64,000 nt of DNA from assembly GCA_012959435.1 (NCBI GenBank), contig DUDF01000113.1, positions 3,730 through 67,729 of the forward strand. The letters are read 5' to 3'. A program made the position numbers and the translations under genes. A model generated the notes under the pieces. It did no database searches and had not been told where the DNA came from. It saw only the letters and a program-made list of their open reading frames with translations. Positions 1,372 to 15,900 of the stretch are shown piece after piece. The stretch's first letter is position 1, and each line of letters starts with the position of its first letter. This DNA comes from Candidatus Poseidoniales archaeon. Its GTDB lineage: Archaea; Thermoplasmatota; Poseidoniia; Poseidoniales; Thalassarchaeaceae.

Positions 1372-3108
1372 CTATTTGATGGAGTCATTCCAATAAGAAT
1401 CCTCAACAGATGAAGATGATTGCTGAGCAAGAAGTTGACCTTTCTTTAGTATTTCATTACGCTTTTTCTTACCATTAGAATAAATTAAACTTGACAAGAA
1501 AATCGCCCCTCCTCCTGTGAAAACAATTCCAAATGGATCGGGGCCGATTGGTAGTTCTTGGATATCATCAATATTGGTCCCCTCTCCCTCATTTTCATCC
1601 ACAACAATCATCTCAACTTGAGAGCCTAAATTGATGGTATCTCCTCGTGCATCTTGAATTTCTAATGACACATTGTGCATTCCTGTTTCAAAGAACTCAT
1701 GCACGAAAGACTGGTTTGTTGATGTCGTACCATCAGCAAATTGCCATTCGTAAGAGTAAGGTGCCAGCCCACCCCAAACCTCGATTGTGAAATGTACTGC
1801 ACCTACCGCATCAGTCGATAGAGGCTCAAGTTGACTTGAATGAGAAATATATCCTGCAAGTGACAGATTAACCGTAATCATCTCTTCCTGACAATTCTCT
1901 GGGCCACTGATGAATTGAACACAAATTGTCACATTAGTTGTTCCACCAGTAGGTACGCTGGTGTATGTATGCTCAACTTCGGCACCATTGACAATTATTC
2001 CAACAAAGCCCCAAGATATTGTAGCACCACCATAGTAATCCCACCCATCAGTCAAGGTTGCATTAGCAGAAAATGTAGCAGGAGTATCTACAGAAACTTG
2101 GCTGGGAATTTGATACGTGAAATTACACATCGGGCAAGAGGGAGGGATCGGTGGAGGATACTCACAACTACCATCATCATCGGTTGCATCCGGATCAAAA
2201 TTGGTGGCCGTTATATCCGTACAACCTAAAATTATTACAGGTTCAGAAGGGGTATCAGGAATTTCTTGTACGATGGTATAATTAATTTCAAAATTTGTCT
2301 CATTACTCTGCCAACCATCAGAGCTGACATTAATTTGTACTGAAACTGAACCATTCGGTATTTTCATGCTTAGATTCCAATCACTGGGCTCCAAAGTAAA
2401 GTTAGTTGTAGAACCATTTCCCATGATTGATGGATCTTCTACATTGATTTCAAACACTATTCCAGCATCTTGATGTTGAGTCAAAATATATGCTGGTACG
2501 ACCCTTACAGCATTATTATTCTGAGCAGTGCATTGAAGGACGAAAGTTTGGTCTCTGTATACTAAACGTGTCTCGTTTTGTGTGATTTGCCAACCCTCAT
2601 CACATGAAATTTCAAGATTCGCTAAGGTTGGGTCTGGTTCTACCTTAGGAGTTTTACCTACTGTAAAAGAATATGATACCGTATCAATTAATTGAAAATC
2701 ATCTTCGCCTGATTCCCTTTCTAACAATTCAGCAAAAATAGAATAATTTGTATTGTTGAACCATTCTGAAGACAAATTAGAGAGTGAAATTGAGATATCA
2801 AGATTATTGTAAATTGCAGAGTTAACCCTGTTATCAACCCCATAGATATCATATTCCTCATAAAGTGATATTTTGATTTGATACGAGTCACTCTCATTGG
2901 TATCGTGGGCACTGATTTCAAAACGCACTGATTGTTGAAGTGTAACATTATCAGAAACATCGTAATATTCCTGCTGTGGCGTGACTACCATCTCAACATA
3001 AGGGTCTGAATCTGCAGACACATTCATCCAAGGCATTGACAGTAATATGAAGCAAATCACTAACAATTTACTAGCCGCGATTCTGGGGGTCTCCGAATTC
3101 CAAGCCAT
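1372..3108 (-). CDS. Secreted surface protein with PKD-like domain and C-terminal TM/PGF-CTERM-like anchor
   Basis: 578 aa. N-terminal signal peptide. PKD-type signature (...YSYEWQFADGTTSTNQSFVHEFFETGMHNVSLEIQDARGDT). C-terminal PFGIVFTGGGAIFLSSLIY followed by KKKR. Confidence 0.75.
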   Translation of the reverse strand: MAWNSETPRIAASKLLVICFILLSMPWMNVSADSDPYVEMVVTPQQEYYDVSDNVTLQQSVRFEISAHDTNESDSYQIKISLYEEYDIYGVDNRVNSAIYNNLDISISLSNLSSEWFNNTNYSIFAELLERESGEDDFQLIDTVSYSFTVGKTPKVEPDPTLANLEISCDEGWQITQNETRLVYRDQTFVLQCTAQNNNAVRVVPAYILTQHQDAGIVFEINVEDPSIMGNGSTTNFTLEPSDWNLSMKIPNGSVSVQINVSSDGWQSNETNFEINYTIVQEIPDTPSEPVIILGCTDITATNFDPDATDDDGSCEYPPPIPPSCPMCNFTYQIPSQVSVDTPATFSANATLTDGWDYYGGATISWGFVGIIVNGAEVEHTYTSVPTGGTTNVTICVQFISGPENCQEEMITVNLSLAGYISHSSQLEPLSTDAVGAVHFTIEVWGGLAPYSYEWQFADGTTSTNQSFVHEFFETGMHNVSLEIQDARGDTINLGSQVEMIVVDENEGEGTNIDDIQELPIGPDPFGIVFTGGGAIFLSSLIYSNGKKKRNEILKKGQLLAQQSSSSVEDSYWNDSIK

Positions 3109-3140: not shown

Positions 3141-4058
3141 TCACGATAACGCCGATTCACGAACTGCAGAGAGTTGTCCATGACCAAGAACAGAAAGTTG
3201 CCAAGTCGCTTTACGACCCTTTCCCTCCTTATCGATTAACTCTCGTTCTTGCAATTGCTTCAAGTGATAAGCCATCAATTGTTTTGACGCTTCCAATTTT
3301 GTTCTGATTTCAACAGTTGAAATCCCCAAATCCCCTGCACCAGATAGCACCTCCAGAATCGCTCTTTGCATTCCTGTCACCGGGCTCTCCAACTCATACA
3401 GTTTCTTTGGGTCTGTGCCTGAAACAGCATATCTTCTACGCCTACCATCTTGCCAAGAAATCAATTCACCAGCCTTTTCCAATTGATGTAAATGATGGGC
3501 AGTAACGCCATTTGCTAGTGTGAGAGCATCGCGAAGTGCCGAGAAATGTATTCCAGGGTGTGCCTCAACATAACCCTCAATTCGCCCGCGTGTCTGAACA
3601 TCCTTTTCTTTACCGTGAAGTTTCGCTAATAGTGGTCCGGCTAAAGCCAAAACAAGACCTGTCTTGACACCCTCGCTGACGAGTACTCCTACTCCAAGTG
3701 AACCGACCAAACCAACGGTTACAAGGGCTAAAAGTAGTGCTGCAATGATTGAAGTGAAACCCACAGGGGCTATTCCACCTGCTTCGTCCCCAGCAACCGG
3801 ATCATCATTTCTAGAATCCGCTGATTCTGGTGCAGCGCCACTGCTATCATCTGCATCACCGCCATCATCTGCTGCCGTCATTTCTGCTGCGAAATTATCT
3901 TCTTCATTGACTGGTTGCTCCTCCTCAGGAGTGAAATAATCAATCAGAAGGGCGCTATTGTAAGCCGTTACTACAACGCCTAACACCGCTACAAGCGCTA
4001 ACAACCGGTAGCCAACAACTCGGTTCATGTCGTCTCCTGAGAACAGGATTGCACCCAT
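3141..4058 (-). CDS. Membrane-tethered transcription regulator with two winged-helix (ArsR/MarR-like) domains
   Basis: 305 aa. N-terminal TM, then an acidic ~70-aa segment, then 1-2 TM helices, then two wHTH units (HPGIHFSALRDALTLANGVTAHHLHQLEKAGELISWQDGRRRRY; MQRAILEVLSGAGDLGISTVEIRTKLEASKQLMAYHLKQLQERELI). Confidence 0.7.
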   Translation of the reverse strand: MGAILFSGDDMNRVVGYRLLALVAVLGVVVTAYNSALLIDYFTPEEEQPVNEEDNFAAEMTAADDGGDADDSSGAAPESADSRNDDPVAGDEAGGIAPVGFTSIIAALLLALVTVGLVGSLGVGVLVSEGVKTGLVLALAGPLLAKLHGKEKDVQTRGRIEGYVEAHPGIHFSALRDALTLANGVTAHHLHQLEKAGELISWQDGRRRRYAVSGTDPKKLYELESPVTGMQRAILEVLSGAGDLGISTVEIRTKLEASKQLMAYHLKQLQERELIDKEGKGRKATWQLSVLGHGQLSAVRESALS

Positions 4059-4147
4059 AACCGAGTTGGTTCAATGATTTTACCAACTATCAAGCAGAAT
4101 TGTTTCCTGATGTTATGGATAAATCGTTATCCATCATCAAGATTTTC

Positions 4148-6163
4148 TTAGTTTAATCGGTAAGAAAGGATTGACTGTGACCCGTTTTCGTCTTCATTCA
4201 AAATTGGCTTTTCTGCCTTTCCTTTCTTCTCAGATACATTTGCTGTGGTGCTCTGTGTATTCGCTAAAACCAAAACTAAAATTATCAACAATAATGGCAC
4301 TGTATAGGTGATTATATCAGCGCCACCTGTGGATGCAAATGGCTCGTTATTATTGTTAGAACCGTCGCTTGTGATGTCTTTATTTTGCAAACTACAATCC
4401 ATTTCATCAAGGACTTGCTCGGAAAAGAACACATTACACTGAATTCTCTCAATCTCCGTATTTCTGAGGATAATATCGGCTAATGTTGTACTATTGATTT
4501 GGTCTTGAATGTCCGCCAATTCTGAAAATTCTGAGCCGTAATAGAGGCGGTCACCATCTCTCAATCTCCCGAATTGCTCCTTAATGATGACATGCATCGT
4601 TTCACCGAGGGCTGAATTTTCAACGTGGTCTTCTGCCAACATGCCGATGAATGCGTCAACACTGTCAACATCTGGATATGTGCTGTTTAATGCTTCAATA
4701 GTGGCATTATCACTTGTGAAATCGCTCCAATCAGTATATCTTGCTAAACCAAATGCCTCACGAACAGTATTGAAATCTGGAACCCCATGGTCTCGACCTC
4801 GCTGAATGTCAATAGCACACAAATCCATCCCGCCTGCTCCAGGTGGGCCAAACATCTGATTTCGTAAATCTTCAACGAACATCAAATCATTTTCTGGTTG
4901 TACATTGTAGGCAAGACCACGTAATATAGGTCCAATTCCACCCCCTTCAGTAATTGGGCTAACATCAAAGAATCCCTCTCTAAGAGTAAGGTGGCCCTGA
5001 GAAGAAGGCATTCTTGTCTCATTCAGTCTGAACATCGTACTTCCAATTTGGCTGTGCCCCATACGGAATGCAACTGTAGCAAACTCATTGGAAATTGTCG
5101 GATCAATTGTTGGATTATATCCATTGTATGGGTCTAATTCAATCCCTAGAGATGGCAAAAATTCATTGTAAGTAATTGACTCAATCAATCCAATGTTTAT
5201 GTGCCTCGCATATTGGTAAATCTGTTCATCTGACCAGTCTGGATTTCTATCTAGAATTTCACCAGCTAAACGGTTGTGTTCCCGAACAAACAGAGTTTGC
5301 ATAGAAAGTAATGCAACGTGCTCATTCGCTCTGCCATCTCCTGCAACGAATGAATTTGAGAAATTGAAGCCAGCAAATGACATGCCCGGAGTAGTTGGGT
5401 CTTCAGCATAGTTTGCTTGGGGAAGCAAGTCACCTTCCTCAAAGTCACTAACCTTCATCCTACCATCGCGGTTTTCACGTAACCAATCTGCCCTTGCTGC
5501 ATCACTACCGTAAACCACTGAACCATCGATCCAAGTTGTAATGGTGTTAGGGTGTTCTCTTTGATTTAGGGGGTCGCCATTGCCGGTGCCGTTAACCACC
5601 AACGAGCGGAAAAATCTCATTTGTAACCCACCAGGGTATCCCATCCATTCATCATCTTCGGAAATTGGAATATATGCTGTATCAGGTTGGTCTTGGTCTG
5701 GTGTTCTACCATCTTGAGTAGTCGTATGGTCAATCTCATGGGTGATGAACTGCCCCCATAACCAGTTGTAGTCAGACAACCCTTGTGAATCGGGATGAGG
5801 TTGATCTTCTTGACATAATGAATTACTAATTCCACGTGGATTAGGAACGTCTGAGCGGTCCCAAAAGGTTAGATTTACACCATCAGTTGTGTTATATCTT
5901 TCAGAAAATCGCGAAATTTGCGACCCTGCTTCACCGTATCCGGGATGGCCGATATTTACTCCTGAGCCATCATATCCATACTGAGTTGCAGAATTCATTG
6001 CTGACTCATCAACTGAGGCATAGGTCGTAGCACCATCCTCCTTCTCAATAGTTGAAGCCGAAACTGCTGCTAATCCTGAAAGCATGAAAAGTGTCACCGT
6101 CAATAGAGCAAATCTACTACGGTTTAGTTCTGAATTAATTGATTCAAAATTTCTTGGCATCAT
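4148..6163 (-). CDS. Animal-type heme peroxidase (peroxidase-cyclooxygenase superfamily), secreted, C-terminal TM anchor; catalytically competent copy
   Basis: 671 aa. Signal peptide. Distal-His motif WLWGQFITHEIDHT (matches WGQLLDHD). Ca-binding TWIDGSVVYGSD. AGDGRANEHVALLSMQTLFVREHNRLA (matches GDTRSSE...TSMHTLLLREHNRLA). Proximal-His motif AFRMGHSQI. DIQRGRDHGVPDFN. GMLAEDH. C-terminal hydrophobic helix. Confidence 0.88.
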   Translation of the reverse strand: MMPRNFESINSELNRSRFALLTVTLFMLSGLAAVSASTIEKEDGATTYASVDESAMNSATQYGYDGSGVNIGHPGYGEAGSQISRFSERYNTTDGVNLTFWDRSDVPNPRGISNSLCQEDQPHPDSQGLSDYNWLWGQFITHEIDHTTTQDGRTPDQDQPDTAYIPISEDDEWMGYPGGLQMRFFRSLVVNGTGNGDPLNQREHPNTITTWIDGSVVYGSDAARADWLRENRDGRMKVSDFEEGDLLPQANYAEDPTTPGMSFAGFNFSNSFVAGDGRANEHVALLSMQTLFVREHNRLAGEILDRNPDWSDEQIYQYARHINIGLIESITYNEFLPSLGIELDPYNGYNPTIDPTISNEFATVAFRMGHSQIGSTMFRLNETRMPSSQGHLTLREGFFDVSPITEGGGIGPILRGLAYNVQPENDLMFVEDLRNQMFGPPGAGGMDLCAIDIQRGRDHGVPDFNTVREAFGLARYTDWSDFTSDNATIEALNSTYPDVDSVDAFIGMLAEDHVENSALGETMHVIIKEQFGRLRDGDRLYYGSEFSELADIQDQINSTTLADIILRNTEIERIQCNVFFSEQVLDEMDCSLQNKDITSDGSNNNNEPFASTGGADIITYTVPLLLIILVLVLANTQSTTANVSEKKGKAEKPILNEDENGSQSILSYRLN

Positions 6164-8091
6164 TCTTCCTCCTTGATTTCTTTTGCTTCTGGGTTTACTG
6201 ATTCTTTTCTTGATAATGTTGCTACTGCTATCAGAATTAATACTATCACTGCACCAATATAGGTACTCATATCAGTTGATGTTTCTCCGGCACCCCCTCC
6301 GGAAATTTGTATCACCTCTAGGTTGGCAAGGTTGCATTGAAAACTGTTCGCATCACTTTCAGCCATGAATACTTCGCATTGAATTGATTCAACTTCTGTA
6401 TTTCTAAGAATAATATCAGACAACCGAAGGGAATTTAATTCAGTGGTTAACGAGTTTAATTCTGCATCATTCTCATACCAAAACCGATCTCCATCTCGAA
6501 TCCTTTGAAACTGATTCAAAACCAACATCTGTTGGGTTTCACCATAGATTGATGATGCTAGTCTGTCTTCAGCCATTACACCAATATATGCATCAATGCT
6601 ATCAACATCTGAATACGCCAAAGCTAGTTTTTGTTGTGCATCAACATCTGAACTAATATCACTAAAATCCGTGACTCTTTCAAGCCCAAGACCTTCTCTC
6701 AATGAATTGTAATCTGTGAGACCGCGGTCACGACCGCGTTGGATATCCATCGCACAATCATCCATCCAGCCACCCCACATTGCCCCACTCATCAAGTTAC
6801 GAAGACTTGGAATAACTGCCACATCCATTTCTCTTTGAGTATCGTATGCAGCACCACGAATTGTAGAATCTATTCCACCAGCCTCAATTAACGAGGATGT
6901 CGTCCAAAAGCCATCTCTCAAATCCAAATGGCCATTCGATGTTTCGTTGAGTCCTTCATCAAATTGCAACCAACCATCAGCCATCTGACTACCTGTTGCA
7001 AATGCTGCTAACAAGATATATTCATTACTTAATTGTGGATTAATAGTTGAATTATAACCGGAATAATTATCCAAATCAATTCCAATTGACGGAAGATACT
7101 CGTTGTATGTAATTGCCTGAATTTCAGCCTGAACTAGTTTCTTAGCGCGCTGAAATATCTGCTCATCATTCCAATCAGAATGGCGCTCGCTCAAACCATC
7201 TGCTAGCCGGTTGTGTTCTCTAATGAATAATACTTGAAGGGAAGTGAGACCAATATTCTCAAGGTTTCTTGAATCACCTGTGAAAAATTGGAGATTTGGA
7301 TTATCCCCCGTAGTACTCTCTACGTATTCTGTCACGCGCCCTGGAACCATGTCCCAACCATCAACATCTGTCACTTTAAGATGCCCTCCTTCACCACTGC
7401 GGAGATAATCTTGAAACTCTACACTAGAAGAATAAATTGAACCACCATCAATCCAACTACTCACCTCATTTGGATATTCTCTAGGGTTCTCTTCACTATC
7501 GCCAGTACTAGAAATAAATTCAGTTCGTAAATATTTGATTCGTGAATCTTCTACGCTACCGGGATTCATGATTTCATCATCAATCGGAATCGAAATATGT
7601 GCCTCTTCCATGCCGCCTTCATGTGAAGAATCTTGATGAGATGTGAGTTGTATATCGTTGTTAATGAATTCAGACCAAAGTACATTCATGTTTGAAAGAC
7701 CAAGTGAACTTGGTGTTGCAATAGATTCCACACATACTTGATTGGATATAATTCGTGGATTTTCGTATTCGGGATGGGCCATTTCTGAGATACTATCATT
7801 GAAAGATTGTGGAGTTAATCGATTGATTTGGCTGTTAATCGCACCCCAATCACTGTTGGCAATATTATTGCCACTACCGTCATTATTTCGAATTACTTGT
7901 GGTGCCATTTCCTCATCGGATGCAAATACACTCGACTCTTCTTTGGCGACTGGTGTTGCTGCTGATGGAAGAGAAATCGAGACTGACAAAAGCAAGAATG
8001 CAGCCACCTGCACAAAGAGGCGGGTTGCAGTGAAACCGCTCACACTCTTTTGGAAACCAATTGGTGGATGCATATCTCTACCGATTCTCAC
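6160..8091 (-). CDS. Animal-heme-peroxidase paralog lacking both heme-ligating histidines (probable pseudo-peroxidase partner)
   Basis: 643 aa. Same fold motifs as the downstream gene (SWIDGGSIYSSS; TGDSRNLENIGLTSLQVLFIREHNRLA; DIQRGRDRGLTDYN; GVMAEDR). The distal region reads WSEFINNDIQLT (His replaced by Asn, Gln replaced by Glu). The proximal region reads AAFATGSQM (His deleted). 4-nt ATGA overlap with the downstream peroxidase. Confidence 0.82.
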   Translation of the reverse strand: MRIGRDMHPPIGFQKSVSGFTATRLFVQVAAFLLLSVSISLPSAATPVAKEESSVFASDEEMAPQVIRNNDGSGNNIANSDWGAINSQINRLTPQSFNDSISEMAHPEYENPRIISNQVCVESIATPSSLGLSNMNVLWSEFINNDIQLTSHQDSSHEGGMEEAHISIPIDDEIMNPGSVEDSRIKYLRTEFISSTGDSEENPREYPNEVSSWIDGGSIYSSSVEFQDYLRSGEGGHLKVTDVDGWDMVPGRVTEYVESTTGDNPNLQFFTGDSRNLENIGLTSLQVLFIREHNRLADGLSERHSDWNDEQIFQRAKKLVQAEIQAITYNEYLPSIGIDLDNYSGYNSTINPQLSNEYILLAAFATGSQMADGWLQFDEGLNETSNGHLDLRDGFWTTSSLIEAGGIDSTIRGAAYDTQREMDVAVIPSLRNLMSGAMWGGWMDDCAMDIQRGRDRGLTDYNSLREGLGLERVTDFSDISSDVDAQQKLALAYSDVDSIDAYIGVMAEDRLASSIYGETQQMLVLNQFQRIRDGDRFWYENDAELNSLTTELNSLRLSDIILRNTEVESIQCEVFMAESDANSFQCNLANLEVIQISGGGAGETSTDMSTYIGAVIVLILIAVATLSRKESVNPEAKEIKEEE

Positions 8092-8218
8092 GAATCCTAT
8101 TTGTCGTTAGAACTTTGTTCTAAAGAAGTGGCTTAAATTTAATCTAGTTCGTTGATTAAAATTTCGCCGTATATTTCATAGGTGAAACCAATGTGCGTCG
8201 TACTGAAGGGATGTATCA
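8092..8218. promoter_or_regulatory. Divergent intergenic region between peroxidase operon and FG-GAP gene; AT-rich TATA-like elements
   Basis: ttaaatttaatcta, gattaaaattt and tatattt boxes sit between divergent starts 8091(-) and 8219(+). Confidence 0.4.
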
Positions 8219-10504
8219 TTGGAGGCGAGTGATGTGGCAACAAATCAAATTAAAAAATCTAAAAAAATTGCAATAATTCTTGCGATGTTGACTATTACAA
8301 CTCTTCTCTCAGCACTACCATCTCCTGTACTTGCGCATTCACAAGGTGTACAAACGGAAACGATGGTAACCTTCACTGATGTTTCCGAAGCAAGTGGCAT
8401 GAGTATTGTTAACACCGGCCCACTAACAAATTGGGCTAGTTATGGTCCGGGAATTTCGGTAGATGATTGTGACCAAGATGGTGATATGGATGTCATGATA
8501 ACAGCAAGATTTGACCATCTTTCTTACGAAAATTTAGAATTTGAATCTGGTTCAATTCAATTCATGTTAAACAATGGAGATGGCACCTTCACTGATTGGT
8601 CCGAAGAATCTGGATTGAATTTACAAAATACAACTGTAATAGGATCATCTTGGGCTGATTACGATAATGATGGTGACAAAGATGTTTATCTCAGCGCTTT
8701 TGGTGAATCTAATGTCGAAAACTTAGATTCTGGAGAGAGAAATATTCTCTTCAAAAATAATGGGAATTGCCAGTTTACTGATGTCACTGCAAAAACAGGC
8801 GCTGGTCAAGATGCTCAGGCTAATGCCGTAGTGGTCAATGGAATCATCACCGAAGTCGTAATGCAAAACAGCGGCTCAGGCTATGCAACAACTGGTGGAC
8901 TTGCTCCAGCGATTTATTTCCGTGATATCAACGGAAATGGTGCGATGGCTGAAGTTATCGTCACCGTTGATGGTGAAATTTCATCTGTCAGTATTACCAA
9001 TGGAGGAGAAGGTTACGACGATGGAAATCCTCCTGAAGTGATTTTTGTCAGCGGAGTAGCGAATTATGGCCACAGCACAACTGCAATTTGGGCTGACTAT
9101 GACCATGACGGCGATGTTGACCTGTACTCAATGAATCTAGGAATTGTTGACGAGGAATTATACTGGGCGCGCACAGAAACCAACTTTCTCTATCGTAATG
9201 ATGGAGATGTTGATGGAGACGGAGAAATAGAATTCAGTGATGTCACGAAAATCGCTGGTGTTAGCGGCCAAAGTGAAGTCTCAGATTCACCAAATCAATT
9301 TTTCCTTTCGGGGCTGTACAGAATGGACCAACCTAGCCCATCAAACCCATCAACAATGGCACTTATCGCTTCAGCAGATCACCGAGGGACGGGGTTATCC
9401 TTTGCTGGAGTATGGTTTGACTATGATGGCGATGGCTGGGAAGATCTCTACATCGCTTCTGACTTCGGGATGTCACCAATATATCACAACAATCACGACG
9501 GTACTTTCACTGTGATGACAAAAGAACTGGGCATGGACCTACCAGGTACTGGTATGGGGGCGCACGCGGGTGATTGGGATGGAGATGGGGACCTTGACCT
9601 ATGTCACTCAAACTTTGGGCCAAACTACCTTTGGGAAAACGAAGATGGGAATTCATTCAGTGAGAGAAGCCGTGACCTAGGGTTCCGTGATGAGGGCTCA
9701 GCTGGCTCATTCGTTGCTGTAAATTGGGCATGTCAATTCTTTGACTACGACCTTGATGGTGATTTAGACATATTCTTTGGTGTTGGGAGAATCAACCGTT
9801 TTACTGCCTACAACAATAACACATTATATCGAAATGATGGTGATACCGATGGTGATGGTTTTGCCAATTTTGTAGACATTAGTGGTGAAATCGGCTTAAG
9901 GACTGGAACTAATGGTAACAAAACAATGGGTGTCTCAATCTTTGATTACGATGGTGATGGTGACTTAGATATCATGCTTGGGCACTCCGACCGTGCCCCA
10001 CAATTATTCTCAAACAACGCTGTTGAAGAAACTGGGCGCCATTGGCTCAAAGTTCAACTTGAAGGGCGACAAACTGATGTTAGTACATCGCAAGGCTTTG
10101 GGCAGCGTGATTATTCTAACAGTTATGGAACTGGATGCTTAGTCATAGTGACCCTTGAAGATGGTCATGAATTACGTCAGCATGTGTATGCTGGAAGCGG
10201 GTTCCTTGGTAGTAACGAGCCAACAGTTCACTTTGGTTTGGATGCTGATGATTCAGTCAAATCAGTTGAAGTTGTTTGGTCAACAGGAATTACTCAAATT
10301 GAAAGAAATGTTGAAGCAGACCAGACTCTAATGATGGAAGAACCAACAAGTTTGTTCTTCACACTATTCGGAATCGGCTTACATCAAAACATCAATACGG
10401 CGCTCTATCTGTTATTTACTATCATCTTTATTGGTGGGGCATTCAAACTTTACAACAAAGAAAATGATTTGACCACTGATAATAAAAACTCAGAAGAAGA
10501 GTAA
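8219..10504 (+). CDS. CRTAC1-like FG-GAP/VCBS repeat protein with ASPIC/UnbV C-terminal domain, secreted, TM-anchored
   Basis: 761 aa. Signal peptide. Repeated DxDxDGDxD propeller-blade Ca motifs (WADYDNDGDKDVY, WADYDHDGDVDLY, FDYDGDGWEDLY, FDYDLDGDLDIF, FDYDGDGDLDIM). UnbV_ASPIC-like tail (RHWLKVQLEGRQ...HFGLD...VEVVWSTG). C-terminal TM. Confidence 0.8.
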   Translation: MEASDVATNQIKKSKKIAIILAMLTITTLLSALPSPVLAHSQGVQTETMVTFTDVSEASGMSIVNTGPLTNWASYGPGISVDDCDQDGDMDVMITARFDHLSYENLEFESGSIQFMLNNGDGTFTDWSEESGLNLQNTTVIGSSWADYDNDGDKDVYLSAFGESNVENLDSGERNILFKNNGNCQFTDVTAKTGAGQDAQANAVVVNGIITEVVMQNSGSGYATTGGLAPAIYFRDINGNGAMAEVIVTVDGEISSVSITNGGEGYDDGNPPEVIFVSGVANYGHSTTAIWADYDHDGDVDLYSMNLGIVDEELYWARTETNFLYRNDGDVDGDGEIEFSDVTKIAGVSGQSEVSDSPNQFFLSGLYRMDQPSPSNPSTMALIASADHRGTGLSFAGVWFDYDGDGWEDLYIASDFGMSPIYHNNHDGTFTVMTKELGMDLPGTGMGAHAGDWDGDGDLDLCHSNFGPNYLWENEDGNSFSERSRDLGFRDEGSAGSFVAVNWACQFFDYDLDGDLDIFFGVGRINRFTAYNNNTLYRNDGDTDGDGFANFVDISGEIGLRTGTNGNKTMGVSIFDYDGDGDLDIMLGHSDRAPQLFSNNAVEETGRHWLKVQLEGRQTDVSTSQGFGQRDYSNSYGTGCLVIVTLEDGHELRQHVYAGSGFLGSNEPTVHFGLDADDSVKSVEVVWSTGITQIERNVEADQTLMMEEPTSLFFTLFGIGLHQNINTALYLLFTIIFIGGAFKLYNKENDLTTDNKNSEEE

Positions 10505-10506
10505 TA

Positions 10507-11586
10507 ATGGGCGAGTTGAAACAAACCATTGGGGCGAGTATGGCTGACAAGAAATCAACAGCAAGTGAGGACGATGGAAGTCCCAAACTTGATGATGATA
10601 AATTAGAAAAAAAACTGCGAGCATCGGCTCGCACTGTTGTCAGAACTTGTATGCAAATGCGCTCTTATGAAAATACCCTAATTATCACCGACCCACATAC
10701 TGCCCAAATAGGTCAAGCAATTTACGAGCAAGCCTCACTAATCTCTGAAAGAGTCCTTCTCCTAATGATGCCATCTAGCCATCAACATGGAGATGAACCA
10801 CCTGGTGCGGTATCAGAATTGATGCGCAAACAACAGGTTGTAATCGCTCCAACAAGATTTTCGTTAACGCACACACGAGCAACACGCTTCGCTCGTAATG
10901 AGGGAGCTAGAATCGCTACTCTACCTGGAATTACATTAGACATCTTTACTGAAGGAGGCATGACAGCGGACTTTGACCGCCTCCGAGAAGAAATTACAAG
11001 GATAGGAAGCAATCTCAAACGCCGGCGACAAATCAAGATAACTAGCGAGGCTGGAACCGATGTTGAATTTGAAGTTGAACATCGGCGTTGGAAACTAGAA
11101 GACAATGGAATCTGCAATCGACCTAGTCACGTAACTAACCTGCCTGCTGGTAAAATATTCACCAGACCAAAGAAAGACACGATGAATGGTAAATTAGTGA
11201 TTGATGGTTCATGGGATTCCACACTACTTGAAGAGCCTCTGACCTTTACTATCAAAGATGGGCTTGTAACTTCTGTAAAAGGTGGAAGTATGGCTGAACT
11301 CATTGAAGAGACATACGAAAGAGCATCTGAAAGACTGAAACCAAAGGACAAAGATCTAGTTTGGACTGTTGCAGAATTTGGTTTTGGAATGAATCCAAAA
11401 GCGCGCCTGATTGGCAATGTATTGGAGGATGAGAAGGTCAAAGGAACCTGTTACCTAGGATTTGGAGATAACACCGCTCTGGGGGGTTCGGCAAATGTTG
11501 GTATACATCACACGGGAGTGATGCTTGAGCCTACAATCCACCTCGATGAAATGGTTCTCCTACAAGCTGGTGAAGTTCTTGAGTGA
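10507..11586 (+). CDS. M29 (AmpS/aminopeptidase T)-like aminopeptidase
   Basis: 359 aa. NLPAGKIFTRP and EFGFGMNP motifs resemble M29 N[IL]P.GE[VI]FT.P and E.G.G.NP. The conserved Glu in the first motif appears as Lys. The N-terminal region is AmpS-like. Confidence 0.5.
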   Translation: MGELKQTIGASMADKKSTASEDDGSPKLDDDKLEKKLRASARTVVRTCMQMRSYENTLIITDPHTAQIGQAIYEQASLISERVLLLMMPSSHQHGDEPPGAVSELMRKQQVVIAPTRFSLTHTRATRFARNEGARIATLPGITLDIFTEGGMTADFDRLREEITRIGSNLKRRRQIKITSEAGTDVEFEVEHRRWKLEDNGICNRPSHVTNLPAGKIFTRPKKDTMNGKLVIDGSWDSTLLEEPLTFTIKDGLVTSVKGGSMAELIEETYERASERLKPKDKDLVWTVAEFGFGMNPKARLIGNVLEDEKVKGTCYLGFGDNTALGGSANVGIHHTGVMLEPTIHLDEMVLLQAGEVLE

Positions 11587-12991: not shown

Positions 12992-15900
12992 TCAATTTAA
13001 GCCGGCTTCATTGACAATATATCTTGATTGTTTGGCATTCCAGCCACCGGTTTGCAACTGACGAAGGATGTTTCTCTCAGATTCTCCTGAGCCGATTGAT
13101 GCACGAGCTTCACCAAGTGATTTCTCGTAATTTGCAGAATCTATAGGGGTGAAAAGGTCCTCCCATTTGCTTGGTGCTTTGGGTTGTTTCTTTTGCGTAT
13201 TTCCGGGTTCTGCTTTGTTCCCGCCCTGCGTCTTTCGAGTTGACCTTGTCTTGACATTCTCGGGTGTTGGTGCACCCGTAACCTTGCGAACTTTGCGAGA
13301 TGGTGCATTAGCAGGTGGTGCATCATCCGAAACTACTGCCCGTCGAGTCTTCTTGGCTCGCGGGGCATTGCTGGGCGGGCTACCTCCTGCACGACCTGGT
13401 GGGCCACTTGAGCCACCCGGACGACTTGGACCACCTCCTCCTCTAGGCCTTCTTGAAGGGGCACCTCCACCTGCACGGCTTGGAGGACCTGCTTGGCCTG
13501 CAGGGCCACCCCTACTAGGTTGATTATCCTCTAGTCCGGAAAATTTCTGCCTCGCGGCAGGCGCATTCCATCCACCTTGGGATTGTGATGCGAATATATC
13601 ATCATCATCCTCTTCAAATTCATCATACACATCATCATCATCTTCATCCCACTCATCTCCACCACGAATGAGCCTAATTACAAACAAAGAGATGATGACT
13701 AGAACTAGTAAAGCTCCAACACCGATGCCAATCATTTTCAAAGGTAAGGTTGAAGATTCGCTTGAACCATACCACTCATTGTACCAATCACATGATTGAT
13801 ATTCATCGGGAACTATCATCCCGGGACTTAAAGTTGGATTGTAAAAATCCTCCCATTTTGTACACTCATCTACGACGTTACCATCGGCACCAGTTGTTGC
13901 AGGGCAACCAACCCCTTGAACGCCATCTTTTACTCCTGCTGAAAGTGGGCATTCATCCCCTTCAAAACCAGTAATATTGTCCCCAAACCCATCACCATCA
14001 TTGTCCTTCCATTGAGTTGGGTCATTGATGAAAGCATCACCCCCTTCGTCAACACCCCATCCTGCAACGGGGTCAGACCAACCATCACCGTCTGTATCTG
14101 GGCAGCCCCAACGGTCACCATTTGGTGAACCTGTTGAATTACCAGCAACATTTGTACAACTATCACCCTGGAAACCACTTAATTCGTTACCAAAGCCATC
14201 AAAATCTAAGTCAAGCCACTGGGTTGGCTCAATTGGGAAATCGTCTACATCATCAAAGAAACCGTCTCCGTCAGTGTCAATATCATTTCGTGGGCAACCT
14301 ACTTCATCGACTACTGCACCATCAGTAGTCCCAGAACATTCATCAAGGGCGTTTGAAACACCATCGTTATCCTCATCAAGTTGATTTCGAGCACATCCAG
14401 TTACATTATCAAAATACTCATCGATTTGGAGCGTGTCTGTATTTGGGCATTCATCCTCAATGTCAGGGACACCATCTACATCGGTATCAAGTGTCAATTG
14501 GTCTTGACTACAACCATTTACATCAACCTCTGCAAGTGCAGTAGTATTAGCACAACGGTCTAGTGAATTTGAGACTCCATCACCGTCGTCATCCTTTTGA
14601 TTTTCAGAGCAACCCAGCCATTGACCTGAGGTATCAACTACCTCACCCGTCGTTGTGTTGCCACACACATCATCATCATCGATAATACCATCAGCATCAG
14701 AATCCTCTCCAGGAAGAGGACATCCGCGGCCTCCATCTCCATTAGAATAGCCAAATTGTTCAGGGCAAAAATCTCCATTTATACGATTTGTAAAATCTCC
14801 AAAACCATCACCATCAGTATCTCTCCACTGGTCTGCGTTTGAGCTATTTGAGTCAGCGTTTCCATTTGGGTGTGCACTTTCTGAAGAGTCAGGGTTAGAC
14901 CAGCCATCACCATCTTCATCTTGACATCCAAATCTATCAACGCTTGAATTACCCCAATTCACTGGACAAGAGTCAGGAGTAGTACCTGTGGGGTTGTCAC
15001 CAAAACCATCCAAGTCGGTGTCATTCCACTGGCTTGGGTCCTCGTTAAAAGCATCTTGCCGCCAAGCATTTGGAGTGGTATTATCCCCGTAATTATCTCC
15101 ATCTTTATCATGCCATTGTTGAGAACAGTTCGCGATACTGCCGCATGCTTCACCTGAATTGCCGTTTCCGCCAGGCCAATTATCAGCACATCCGTTACGG
15201 CCATCGGAATCTATTGCATTACATTGGCTACGATTGTATACCCAAGTAGATTCTTGGGCATTTTGAGATATGTGAGGGTCGGACCAACCATCTCCATCGG
15301 TATCTAGGCACCCTCCACGATCACTCGCTGAAAAACCTTGGAATTCGGGACATTGGTCACCTGTCCAATCAATATTGAACCAATCGGGGTCGCCATCACC
15401 ATCTGTGTCATGGCCATTGAATAAGCGAAGGGTTTCATTGGCATATTGGAAATTATGATTATCTCCCCAGCCATCATTATCCAAATCCTCCCATTGGTTA
15501 CCATTTAATGGATAAATATCGCTTGAAGAACCTCCACAGCAATCAGAGCCGTGGTTATCATAATGGCCATCTCCATCTGTATCTCTCTGTTGATACCAAT
15601 TCACTGGGTTTTGGTCAGCATCTGTACTCCAACCATCTCCATCTGAGTCTTCACAACCTTTCCTATCAACCCATGAATCCCCCCTAGTATTTTGGCAAAT
15701 ATCAACAGCGTCTGCCCATCCATCTAAATCTTGGTCACTACAACCAAAGTAACCCCATCTGCTCCCTCTATCAAGTAAATCAGTTCCACTGTTAATGCAT
15801 TGGTCGGCTGTAGGGCCGCCAGGATTATCTCCGTAGCCATCAGCATCAGCATCATTCCATTGGCCTCCAACAAAAGGAACTTCGTCCCAAGGATCGGGGA

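Follow-up and report, generated by a model that had tools for sequence, protein, structure and literature searches.

Haem peroxidases of the peroxidase–cyclooxygenase superfamily are recognized by a small set of active-site residues, and several are joined to partner domains. As set out in the available part of a 2015 review of the superfamily (Zamocky et al. 2015, PMC4420034), the motif G-Q-x-x-D-H-D contributes the halide-binding Gln, an ester-forming Asp, the distal His and a Ca-binding Asp; the motif R-x-x-E contributes the catalytic Arg and an ester-forming Glu; and a proximal His binds the haem iron. The known partners described in that part of the review are dockerin, an integrin-binding motif, LRR and Ig domains and NADPH oxidase, with no CRTAC1-like protein among them, and Archaea are named there only for the separate peroxidase–catalase superfamily (PMC4420034). 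Here we examine a stretch of 64,000 nucleotides (nt) from a Marine Group II (Poseidoniales) archaeon, referred to as the window (contig DUDF01000113.1 of assembly GCA_012959435.1, positions 3,730 to 67,729), which encodes a haem peroxidase (PoxA), its paralogue (PoxB) and a CRTAC1-like protein. Its closest homologues and loci bear names that include Candidatus Thalassarchaeaceae, Poseidoniales and ‘Euryarchaeota archaeon’ and so place it in Marine Group II. On balance, we favour the view that the peroxidase and the CRTAC1-like propeller form an assembly at the external surface of the archaeal cell membrane, with two parts in general and three here.

An earlier note on this DNA had proposed a six-gene surface module. 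The open reading frames (ORFs) were all verified at the coordinates that it gave, and Pfam searches confirmed the An_peroxidase, FG-GAP_3/UnbV_ASPIC, PKD and winged-helix domains. The module itself shrinks to a core of three genes, listed below; the winged helix-turn-helix (wHTH), PKD and M29-like genes drop out of it and are described further on.

4148–6163, minus strand: PoxA, 671 amino acids (aa), haem peroxidase, An_peroxidase
6160–8091, minus strand: PoxB, 643 aa, paralogue of PoxA, An_peroxidase
8219–10504, plus strand: CRTAC1-like protein, 761 aa, FG-GAP_3 and UnbV_ASPIC

The CRTAC1-like gene is divergent from PoxB and thus, as had been claimed, from the peroxidases. Each of the three proteins has an N-terminal hydrophobic signal, ending in Ala-x-Ala-like small residues and lacking a twin arginine, and a single C-terminal transmembrane (TM) helix followed by a short charged tail. 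Because an N-terminal signal is combined with a C-terminal anchor, the three core proteins would face outwards, and we predict that they are Sec-exported, type I-anchored proteins on the outer face of the membrane. The cell-surface location that the earlier note had proposed is borne out by these features.

To place this locus among its relatives, we used a profile of archaeal peroxidases against GTDB species representatives, which gave 79 loci (29 archaeal, L001–L028 and L037, and 50 bacterial), and partner gene positions were established by tBLASTn and ORF clustering. A CRTAC1-like partner is present near the peroxidase, or fused to it, in 25 of the 29 archaeal loci, never more than four genes away; the other four contigs end too early. 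The arrangements are as follows.

Divergent peroxidase and CRTAC1-like genes: the window, L001–L004 and L037 (5 loci plus the window)
Convergent, with 3′ ends overlapping or abutting: L007, L010–L012, L014 and L017–L019 (8 loci)
Tandem, with the partner gene first: L020 and L021 (2 loci)
Three genes apart: L015 and L028 (2 loci)
Fused in a single ORF of 1,170–1,242 aa: L005, L006, L016 and L022–L026 (8 species)
Contig ends too early: L008, L009, L013 and L027 (L009 and L013 show the beginning of the three-apart layout)

No CRTAC1-like gene was found within 10 kb of the peroxidase at the 50 bacterial loci, using tBLASTn and a hidden Markov model derived from the archaeal partners. The association was also followed from the partner's side. 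The best 120 homologues of the window's CRTAC1-like protein all contain FG-GAP_3 and UnbV_ASPIC, the named ones being archaeal ‘CRTAC1 family’ proteins, and two of them have an added An_peroxidase domain. A reverse look-up that started from CRTAC1-like homologues found a peroxidase adjacent or three genes off in four of five cases: three are convergent to a peroxidase (the first two in near-identical contexts) and one lies three genes away. Neighbourhood conservation had been suggested as a check on the earlier proposal, and for the peroxidase and CRTAC1-like genes the outcome is positive, in separate genes and in fusions; the wHTH, PKD and M29-like genes accompany them only in close relatives.

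In the other archaeal clades, the pair is embedded in a conserved block with the riboflavin genes for DHBP synthase, riboflavin synthase and lumazine synthase, together with genes for thioredoxin reductase, AP endonuclease 2, RNase PH, a MoaB/Mog-type protein, an ion channel and RPA. All of these were considered as partners and rejected as housekeeping synteny. In the window clade, the pair is retained in a wholly different neighbourhood that is rich in surface proteins, and local rearrangements mostly leave the peroxidase and the CRTAC1-like gene together. The peroxidase is evolutionarily tied to the CRTAC1-like protein, beyond chance. As a separate observation, the convergent genes overlap in many Marine Group II genomes at their 3′ ends by about 40–47 nt within the regions coding for the cytoplasmic tails (L010, 11799–11845; L080, 9877–9923), an overlap that an independent gene caller confirmed.

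The fused ORFs carry the association further. Archaeal fused ORFs have a single N-terminal signal, a short Gly-/acid-rich linker that joins the peroxidase to the mature N terminus of its partner, and a single C-terminal TM helix; the internal anchor and the internal signal are gone. One signal and one anchor are exactly what keeps both domains outside the cell. The two proteins are still fused where the fused forms have diverged to 44–45% identity. An assembly artefact was considered as the source of these fusions and rejected, given eight independent species genomes, multi-member clusters from independent assemblies and the clean loss of the internal signal and anchor. When a fused protein was used as the query against 1.84 billion representative proteins, two representatives with the same domain order were recovered (P0241 and P0243), and the named members of the P0243 cluster are archaeal.

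The protein P0293 has the reverse order, with FG-GAP_3 and UnbV_ASPIC followed by An_peroxidase, and this reversal requires an independent fusion event. It is encoded at 7246–11309 of locus L085, a contig of 80.8 kb and 62% GC from Logan SRR23287145. Its neighbours encode a PRMT-type methyltransferase, an Ank/WW protein and a TIG protein, and this context indicates that the contig is probably eukaryotic. The peroxidase domain of P0293 has Thr before the distal His, as in the archaeal clade (see below), but Ile at the position of the ester-forming Glu. Its signal peptide and first blade are encoded separately, by an ORF further upstream in a different frame, pointing to an intron or a frameshift. 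FG-GAP repeats, here with no UnbV domain, are also present in a Chloroflexota peroxidase, P0287. A full-text literature search returned no paper linking UnbV/ASPIC/CRTAC1 proteins to peroxidases, and the pairing adds a new partner architecture to the peroxidase–cyclooxygenase superfamily.

PoxA is a full-length match to An_peroxidase (PF03098), with 477 bits against a profile cut-off of 25 bits (E = 7.9e-143, aa 64–579), and at E ≤ 0.01 Pfam gave no family other than PF03098 for either PoxA or PoxB. The hydrophobic segment of its signal spans aa 18–36 and its C-terminal TM anchor aa 615–633. The nearest solved structures are a cyanobacterial peroxidase (8s6c; E = 7e-103) and DdPoxA (6erc), and the PDB matches of the peroxidases also include LPO and MPO. 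PoxA retains the distal GQFITH, the RANE motif (R278 and E281) and the proximal FRMGH (H370), and has T141 in place of the Asp of the second haem ester. With these residues in place, PoxA is predicted to be an active enzyme.

The same pattern extends to all 27 PoxA-type archaeal sequences (PoxA included), which have GQF-x-(T/S)-H-(D/E), R-x-x-E (mostly RANE) and FR(M/A)GHSQ: Thr or Ser stands in place of the ester Asp, and the other catalytic residues are kept. In a wider motif sample, in which some two-domain proteins were counted twice, T-H was found in 105 archaeal-type matches and D-H in 120 matches to non-archaeal relatives, so loss of the Asp is a signature of the archaeal clade. The Asp directly before the distal His that marks peroxidases of the two-ester-bond type (LPO, EPO, LspPOX and peroxidasin) is absent from both PoxA and PoxB. 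A side issue is raised by a preprint reporting that Marine Group II archaea are apparently haem-auxotrophic (bioRxiv 10.1101/2021.01.11.426183), namely where the haem of a Sec-exported PoxA would come from and how it would be loaded.

The closest described enzymes, DdPoxA and the cyanobacterial peroxidases (8s6c; LspPOX-type, family 6 ‘peroxidockerins’), have in common with PoxA the fold, the Gln-His-Arg set, the Glu ester and the proximal His, and all are extracellular, PoxA by prediction. Like DdPoxA, the archaeal enzymes are without the Asp of the second ester, having Thr or Ser where DdPoxA has Ile; unlike DdPoxA and the cyanobacterial type, they are C-terminally membrane-anchored and not secreted, and are paired with or fused to a CRTAC1-like propeller. 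DdPoxA is the only characterized enzyme that lacks the ester Asp. With Ile at this position, only one ester bond, to Glu, is formed and the reduction potential is lower; the enzyme oxidizes iodide and thiocyanate at >10^8 M−1 s−1, bromide at about 15 M−1 s−1 and chloride not at all (PMC5787809). By analogy with this one-ester enzyme, iodide or thiocyanate would be the likeliest class of donor for PoxA.

These active-site features bear directly on an alternative that follows the comparison with animal peroxidasin made in the earlier note. Here the peroxidase would use dityrosine or sulfilimine bonds to join the CRTAC1-like protein and other surface proteins, among them the PKD protein and the giant FG-GAP/thrombospondin-type-3 (TSP3) proteins of the window, in a covalent matrix of the envelope, much as peroxidasin cross-links collagen IV. 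Peroxidasin (PXDN) is likewise an extracellular peroxidase with accessory binding domains. The proteins that would be cross-linked are all extracellular and membrane-anchored, the window is rich in large surface proteins, and the peroxidase and the CRTAC1-like protein are linked. One-electron oxidation of tyrosine to a tyrosyl radical is, moreover, possible for any haem peroxidase of this superfamily. Yet PoxA and PoxB have none of the LRR, Ig-C2 and vWF-C domains of peroxidasin in Pfam searches, no collagen IV-like substrate is known, and neither the PKD gene nor the other surface-protein genes are conserved as neighbours. The available text on peroxidasin describes its sulfilimine cross-links as formed through HOBr (PMC6611989). 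Since the ester Asp is gone, one-ester DdPoxA barely oxidizes bromide and sulfilimine formation needs HOBr, a peroxidasin-like bromide route is unlikely, and HOBr/sulfilimine cross-linking by PoxA would be disfavoured by analogy with DdPoxA. A 1:1 fusion of an enzyme with its bulk substrate would also be unusual, as fusions more often add a targeting or partner domain. The analogy with peroxidasin is thus weak, and we regard matrix cross-linking as unlikely.

A different substrate is suggested by bacterial Ca-binding homologues of animal haem peroxidases such as MopA of Erythrobacter, a haem peroxidase that is able to oxidize Mn(II) according to the available part of its description (PMC6247904). 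The archaeal unit, too, combines a peroxidase of the same superfamily with Ca-binding repeats, and could on this model oxidize Mn(II) or produce extracellular superoxide. Its nearest relatives, both among solved structures and in databases, are instead halogenating peroxidases of the cyanobacterial and DdPoxA types, and we think Mn(II) oxidation or superoxide production very unlikely.

PoxB changes the picture of the ‘peroxidase pair’ that had been described here. Both members are full-length An_peroxidase proteins (PoxB with 400 bits, E = 1.8e-119), and the pair is nonetheless asymmetric, because PoxA is catalytically intact and PoxB is without haem ligands. The distal motif of PoxB reads SEFINN in place of GQFxxH and its proximal motif FATGSQ in place of FRMGHS, so that the distal Gln, the distal His and the proximal His are all missing and Asn occupies the ester-Asp position. 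The substitutions are the same in L001–L004, and the histidines are gone in L037 as well (six of six orthologues, including that of the window). By its sequence, PoxB is a pseudo-peroxidase that lacks the haem-ligating and catalytic histidines.

PoxB is nevertheless kept. In comparisons with L001 and L002 (dS about 0.5–0.6), the ratio of nonsynonymous to synonymous substitution rates (dN/dS) is 0.13–0.14 for PoxB, 0.10 for PoxA and 0.10–0.11 for the CRTAC1-like protein; with so low a dN/dS, PoxB is being maintained as a protein and is not in decay. The PoxB stop and the PoxA start share 4 nt, suggesting that the two are translated in a coupled manner. The true start of PoxB is probably the ATG at 8073 (637 aa), which is conserved in L001 and L002, and not the GTG at 8091; the start of the CRTAC1-like protein may likewise fall a few codons past the TTG at 8219.

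Inactive members of the superfamily are known in animals. Human PXDNL is a retained paralogue rendered inactive by replacement of conserved active-site residues (PMC8533639), and parallels PoxB, with the difference that PoxB has also lost the haem-ligating proximal His. The peroxidase-homology domain of DUOX is extracellular and membrane-tethered, with key haem residues mutated, according to the available part of the superfamily review (PMC4420034), and it scores relatively well against PoxB. DUOX, however, is fused to an H2O2-generating NADPH oxidase, whereas the archaeal loci have neither an oxidase domain nor a linked oxidase gene; no H2O2-generating oxidase or haem-handling gene was found linked at the surveyed archaeal loci. 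Haem-less PoxB can be regarded as a prokaryotic pseudo-peroxidase under purifying selection, to be compared with PXDNL and the DUOX peroxidase-homology domain.

The third core protein belongs to the CRTAC1/ASPIC family, with matches to FG-GAP_3 (119 bits, E = 9.6e-35) and UnbV_ASPIC (63.8 bits, E = 1.3e-17) and seven DxDxDGDxD blade motifs. It matches the sequence of the murine CRTAC1 structure 9etn (E = 7.5e-16), in keeping with the original designation as CRTAC1-like, and is predicted to be a surface-anchored protein with a Ca-binding FG-GAP β-propeller followed by UnbV_ASPIC. In an AlphaFold2 model of a fused homologue, P0240 (from a mixed alignment of 37 rows; mean predicted local distance difference test (pLDDT) score 70.7), the CRTAC1-like half, which is about 48% identical, has a pLDDT of about 90, and its Foldseek alignment with 9etn spans 603 columns at a target TM-score of 0.73.

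Vertebrate CRTAC1 (ASPIC; 9etn) and the bacterial ‘CRTAC1 family’/UnbV proteins have the same layout as the archaeal protein, an FG-GAP Ca-binding propeller and then UnbV_ASPIC, and are extracellular. Vertebrate CRTAC1 also has a Ca-binding EGF-like domain and an O-glycosylated C-terminal tail (PMC10477339). The archaeal protein has neither: a Pfam search found no EGF-like domain, and its C terminus is instead a TM helix, serving as an anchor, with a short charged tail. The window clade also has an insert of about 80 aa (aa ~205–285, about nt 8831–9073) with two G-x-G-Y...P-x-(I/V)-x-F repeats; the insert has no Pfam match and is missing from more distant orthologues. Literature on the structure and mechanism of CRTAC1, and on HVO_0163, yielded nothing useful.

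Several observations weigh against a dedicated peroxidase–propeller assembly. The two genes are three genes apart in L015, L028 and L083, and at L082 (GCA_034399495.1) the CRTAC1-like gene (6001–7983) stands without a peroxidase over 4.9 kb of contig on its downstream side and the 6 kb shown on its upstream side; the enzyme gene appears to have been lost or relocated there, and L082 is a genuine counter-example to an obligate linkage. In most clades adjacency is weak evidence by itself, because the surrounding block is generally syntenic housekeeping. The pairwise identities of the peroxidase and its partner are correlated (r = 0.96 over 17 taxa), as would be expected of any two vertically co-inherited genes, which shows co-inheritance and not interaction. 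The fused archaeal forms make up one clade in a neighbour-joining tree and so may represent a single old event. The choice of donor leans on one characterized analogue, which has Ile and not Thr at the Asp position. Finally, the peroxidase half of the P0240 model is mostly below a pLDDT of 50, with a predicted TM-score (pTM) of 0.56, and the model is uninformative on the domain interface. The CRTAC1-like gene of L082 is still found in the usual riboflavin/AP-endonuclease block.

Part of this evidence would suit a plainer explanation, in which the peroxidase is an external H2O2 scavenger that replaces KatG in Marine Group IIb (MGIIb) and its association with the CRTAC1-like protein is a matter of synteny or of co-expression of surface proteins. 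The position of the pair in a broadly syntenic housekeeping block in most clades and the persistence of a CRTAC1-like gene without a nearby peroxidase fit this idea. So does a 2023 survey in which ‘PXDN’ is listed among antioxidant genes and occurs mainly in MGIIb, with katG and gpx mainly in MGIIa (PMC10783094), a distribution that the surface peroxidase–propeller unit fits as well. Scavenging leaves unexplained the fusions kept to 44–45% identity and the independent fusion in reverse order, the persistence of the pair in the different neighbourhood of the window clade, and the retention of the haem-less paralogue PoxB; any peroxidase, besides, needs an electron donor. We judge plain scavenging improbable. 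Given that survey, the presence of a peroxidase gene in Marine Group II is not new, and the KEGG-style ‘PXDN’ label on these genes is a best-hit name only.

In the surface assembly that we favour, PoxA, Sec-exported and C-terminally anchored, would use ambient H2O2 to oxidize a small anionic donor or a nearby organic substrate. The CRTAC1-like propeller would be its dedicated partner, a subunit for docking or ligand binding that brings the peroxidase or its target into position, and not a bulk substrate. PoxB, which is duplicated, devoid of haem ligands, retained and translationally coupled to PoxA, would most likely be a non-catalytic subunit. The domains, the topology signals, the active-site residues, the linkage, the fusions and the purifying selection are seen in the sequences themselves; that the proteins form a physical complex, which electron donor is used and what the propeller does are inferred.

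The uncultured Marine Group II archaea rank with the most abundant archaea of the surface ocean, and a conserved surface peroxidase–propeller unit offers a concrete hypothesis for how they handle or exploit ambient H2O2. Such a unit could also bear on the chemistry of halogens (iodine), or on how the cells make contact with particles and algae. We know of no established molecular function for the CRTAC1/UnbV family, whose vertebrate member, CRTAC1, has been reported as an osteoarthritis biomarker in plasma; that the propeller recurs beside a peroxidase, and is fused to it in either order, provides a first clue to the function of this family from genomic context. A bolder version of the hypothesis, which we hold to be quite unlikely, is that the propeller and a one-ester peroxidase form an ancient, recurrent two-component oxidative machine outside the cell, whose parts were joined in no fewer than two separate fusion events (one in Marine Group II archaea, another in a probable marine eukaryote), and that it works in the abundant MGIIb as a surface haloperoxidase for iodide or pseudohalides using the H2O2 of seawater. 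If this were true, it would supply a microbial agent for marine iodide oxidation, and the CRTAC1 family, vertebrate CRTAC1 included, would gain its first biochemical context as a peroxidase partner.

The remaining features at the locus, three genes and a palindrome, are the following.

1372–3108, minus strand: PKD protein, 578 aa, last gene of a co-directional minus-strand run, with PKD_4 and PKD Pfam matches
3141–4058, minus strand: membrane-tethered double winged-helix protein, 305 aa, with HTH_HVO_0163_N, HTH_20 and MarR_2 matches
8107–8123, no strand: palindrome TTAGAAC-N3-GTTCTAA, in the divergent intergenic region between PoxB and the CRTAC1-like gene
10507–11586, plus strand: M29-like protein, 359 aa, with a partial Peptidase_M29 match

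Transcription of the minus-strand run proceeds from PoxB through PoxA and the wHTH gene to the PKD gene (8091 to 1372), with gaps of −4, 89 and 32 nt. The wHTH gene had been placed on the same strand as the peroxidases and directly upstream of them; the strand is right, as is the description of a TM protein with two wHTH domains, but because the run reads from 8091 to 1372 the gene is 3′ (downstream) of the peroxidases, at 89 nt. Its product matches HTH_HVO_0163_N with 67.7 bits and has hydrophobic segments at aa 14–32 and 104–122, ahead of the winged helices. The PKD protein has an N-terminal hydrophobic segment.

None of these genes travels far with the core. The wHTH gene is linked to the peroxidases in L001–L003 only; a PKD orthologue is found only in L001 (its start, at the contig end), L002 and L003; and the M29-like gene adjoins only in L001–L003, where it is inverted in L003, and in L037. 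In L004, whose PoxA is 74% identical to that of the window, other genes already stand where the wHTH and PKD genes would be, and neither of the two is linked at any more distant locus. The wHTH, PKD and M29-like genes are thus local neighbours and not part of a conserved module.

The M29-like ORF does begin 2 nt after the CRTAC1-like gene, as first described, but its label as an M29-like aminopeptidase is less secure. It matches Peptidase_M29 with 38.9 bits over profile positions 185–299 of 406 (about a third), and its sole PDB match is the 2,5-dihydroxypyridine dioxygenase NicX (7cn3; E = 2.7e-9), with no M29 peptidase structure found, so the peptidase label is uncertain. It has no signal peptide and no TM or hydrophobic segment, and is predicted to be a cytoplasmic metalloenzyme of the M29/NicX-like group.

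In an NCBIfam scan, no match was found for the peroxidases or for the CRTAC1-like, PKD or M29-like proteins, and the wHTH protein had only sub-threshold ArsR-type matches. Scans for sigma-70 promoters and intrinsic terminators, models that are ill-suited to an archaeon, gave counts equal to the shuffle expectation.

The peroxidase unit stands at the edge of an island of surface proteins, as positions 12992–33584 of the window are a run of very large ones. They include a 2,124-aa protein with FG-GAP and TSP3 repeats, a TM anchor and a long basic, Pro-rich tail, a 786-aa paralogue of its FG-GAP/TSP3 repeat region, and a 1,631-aa β-helix/PKD protein.

Two short elements hint at regulation. The palindrome at 8107–8123 is perfect and is the single match to its pattern in the window; at least one match occurs in 21 of 100 shuffles, so that a single match is not statistically unusual. 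It is kept in L001 and L002 despite diverged flanks, and partly in L003, and may be a candidate operator shared by the PoxB and CRTAC1-like genes. A different element, the 8-bp inverted repeat ATGGATAA-CGAT-TTATCCAT, lies at ~4118–4137 (minus strand) in the gap between PoxA and the wHTH gene, about 60 nt upstream of the wHTH start, and could be a hairpin or an operator.

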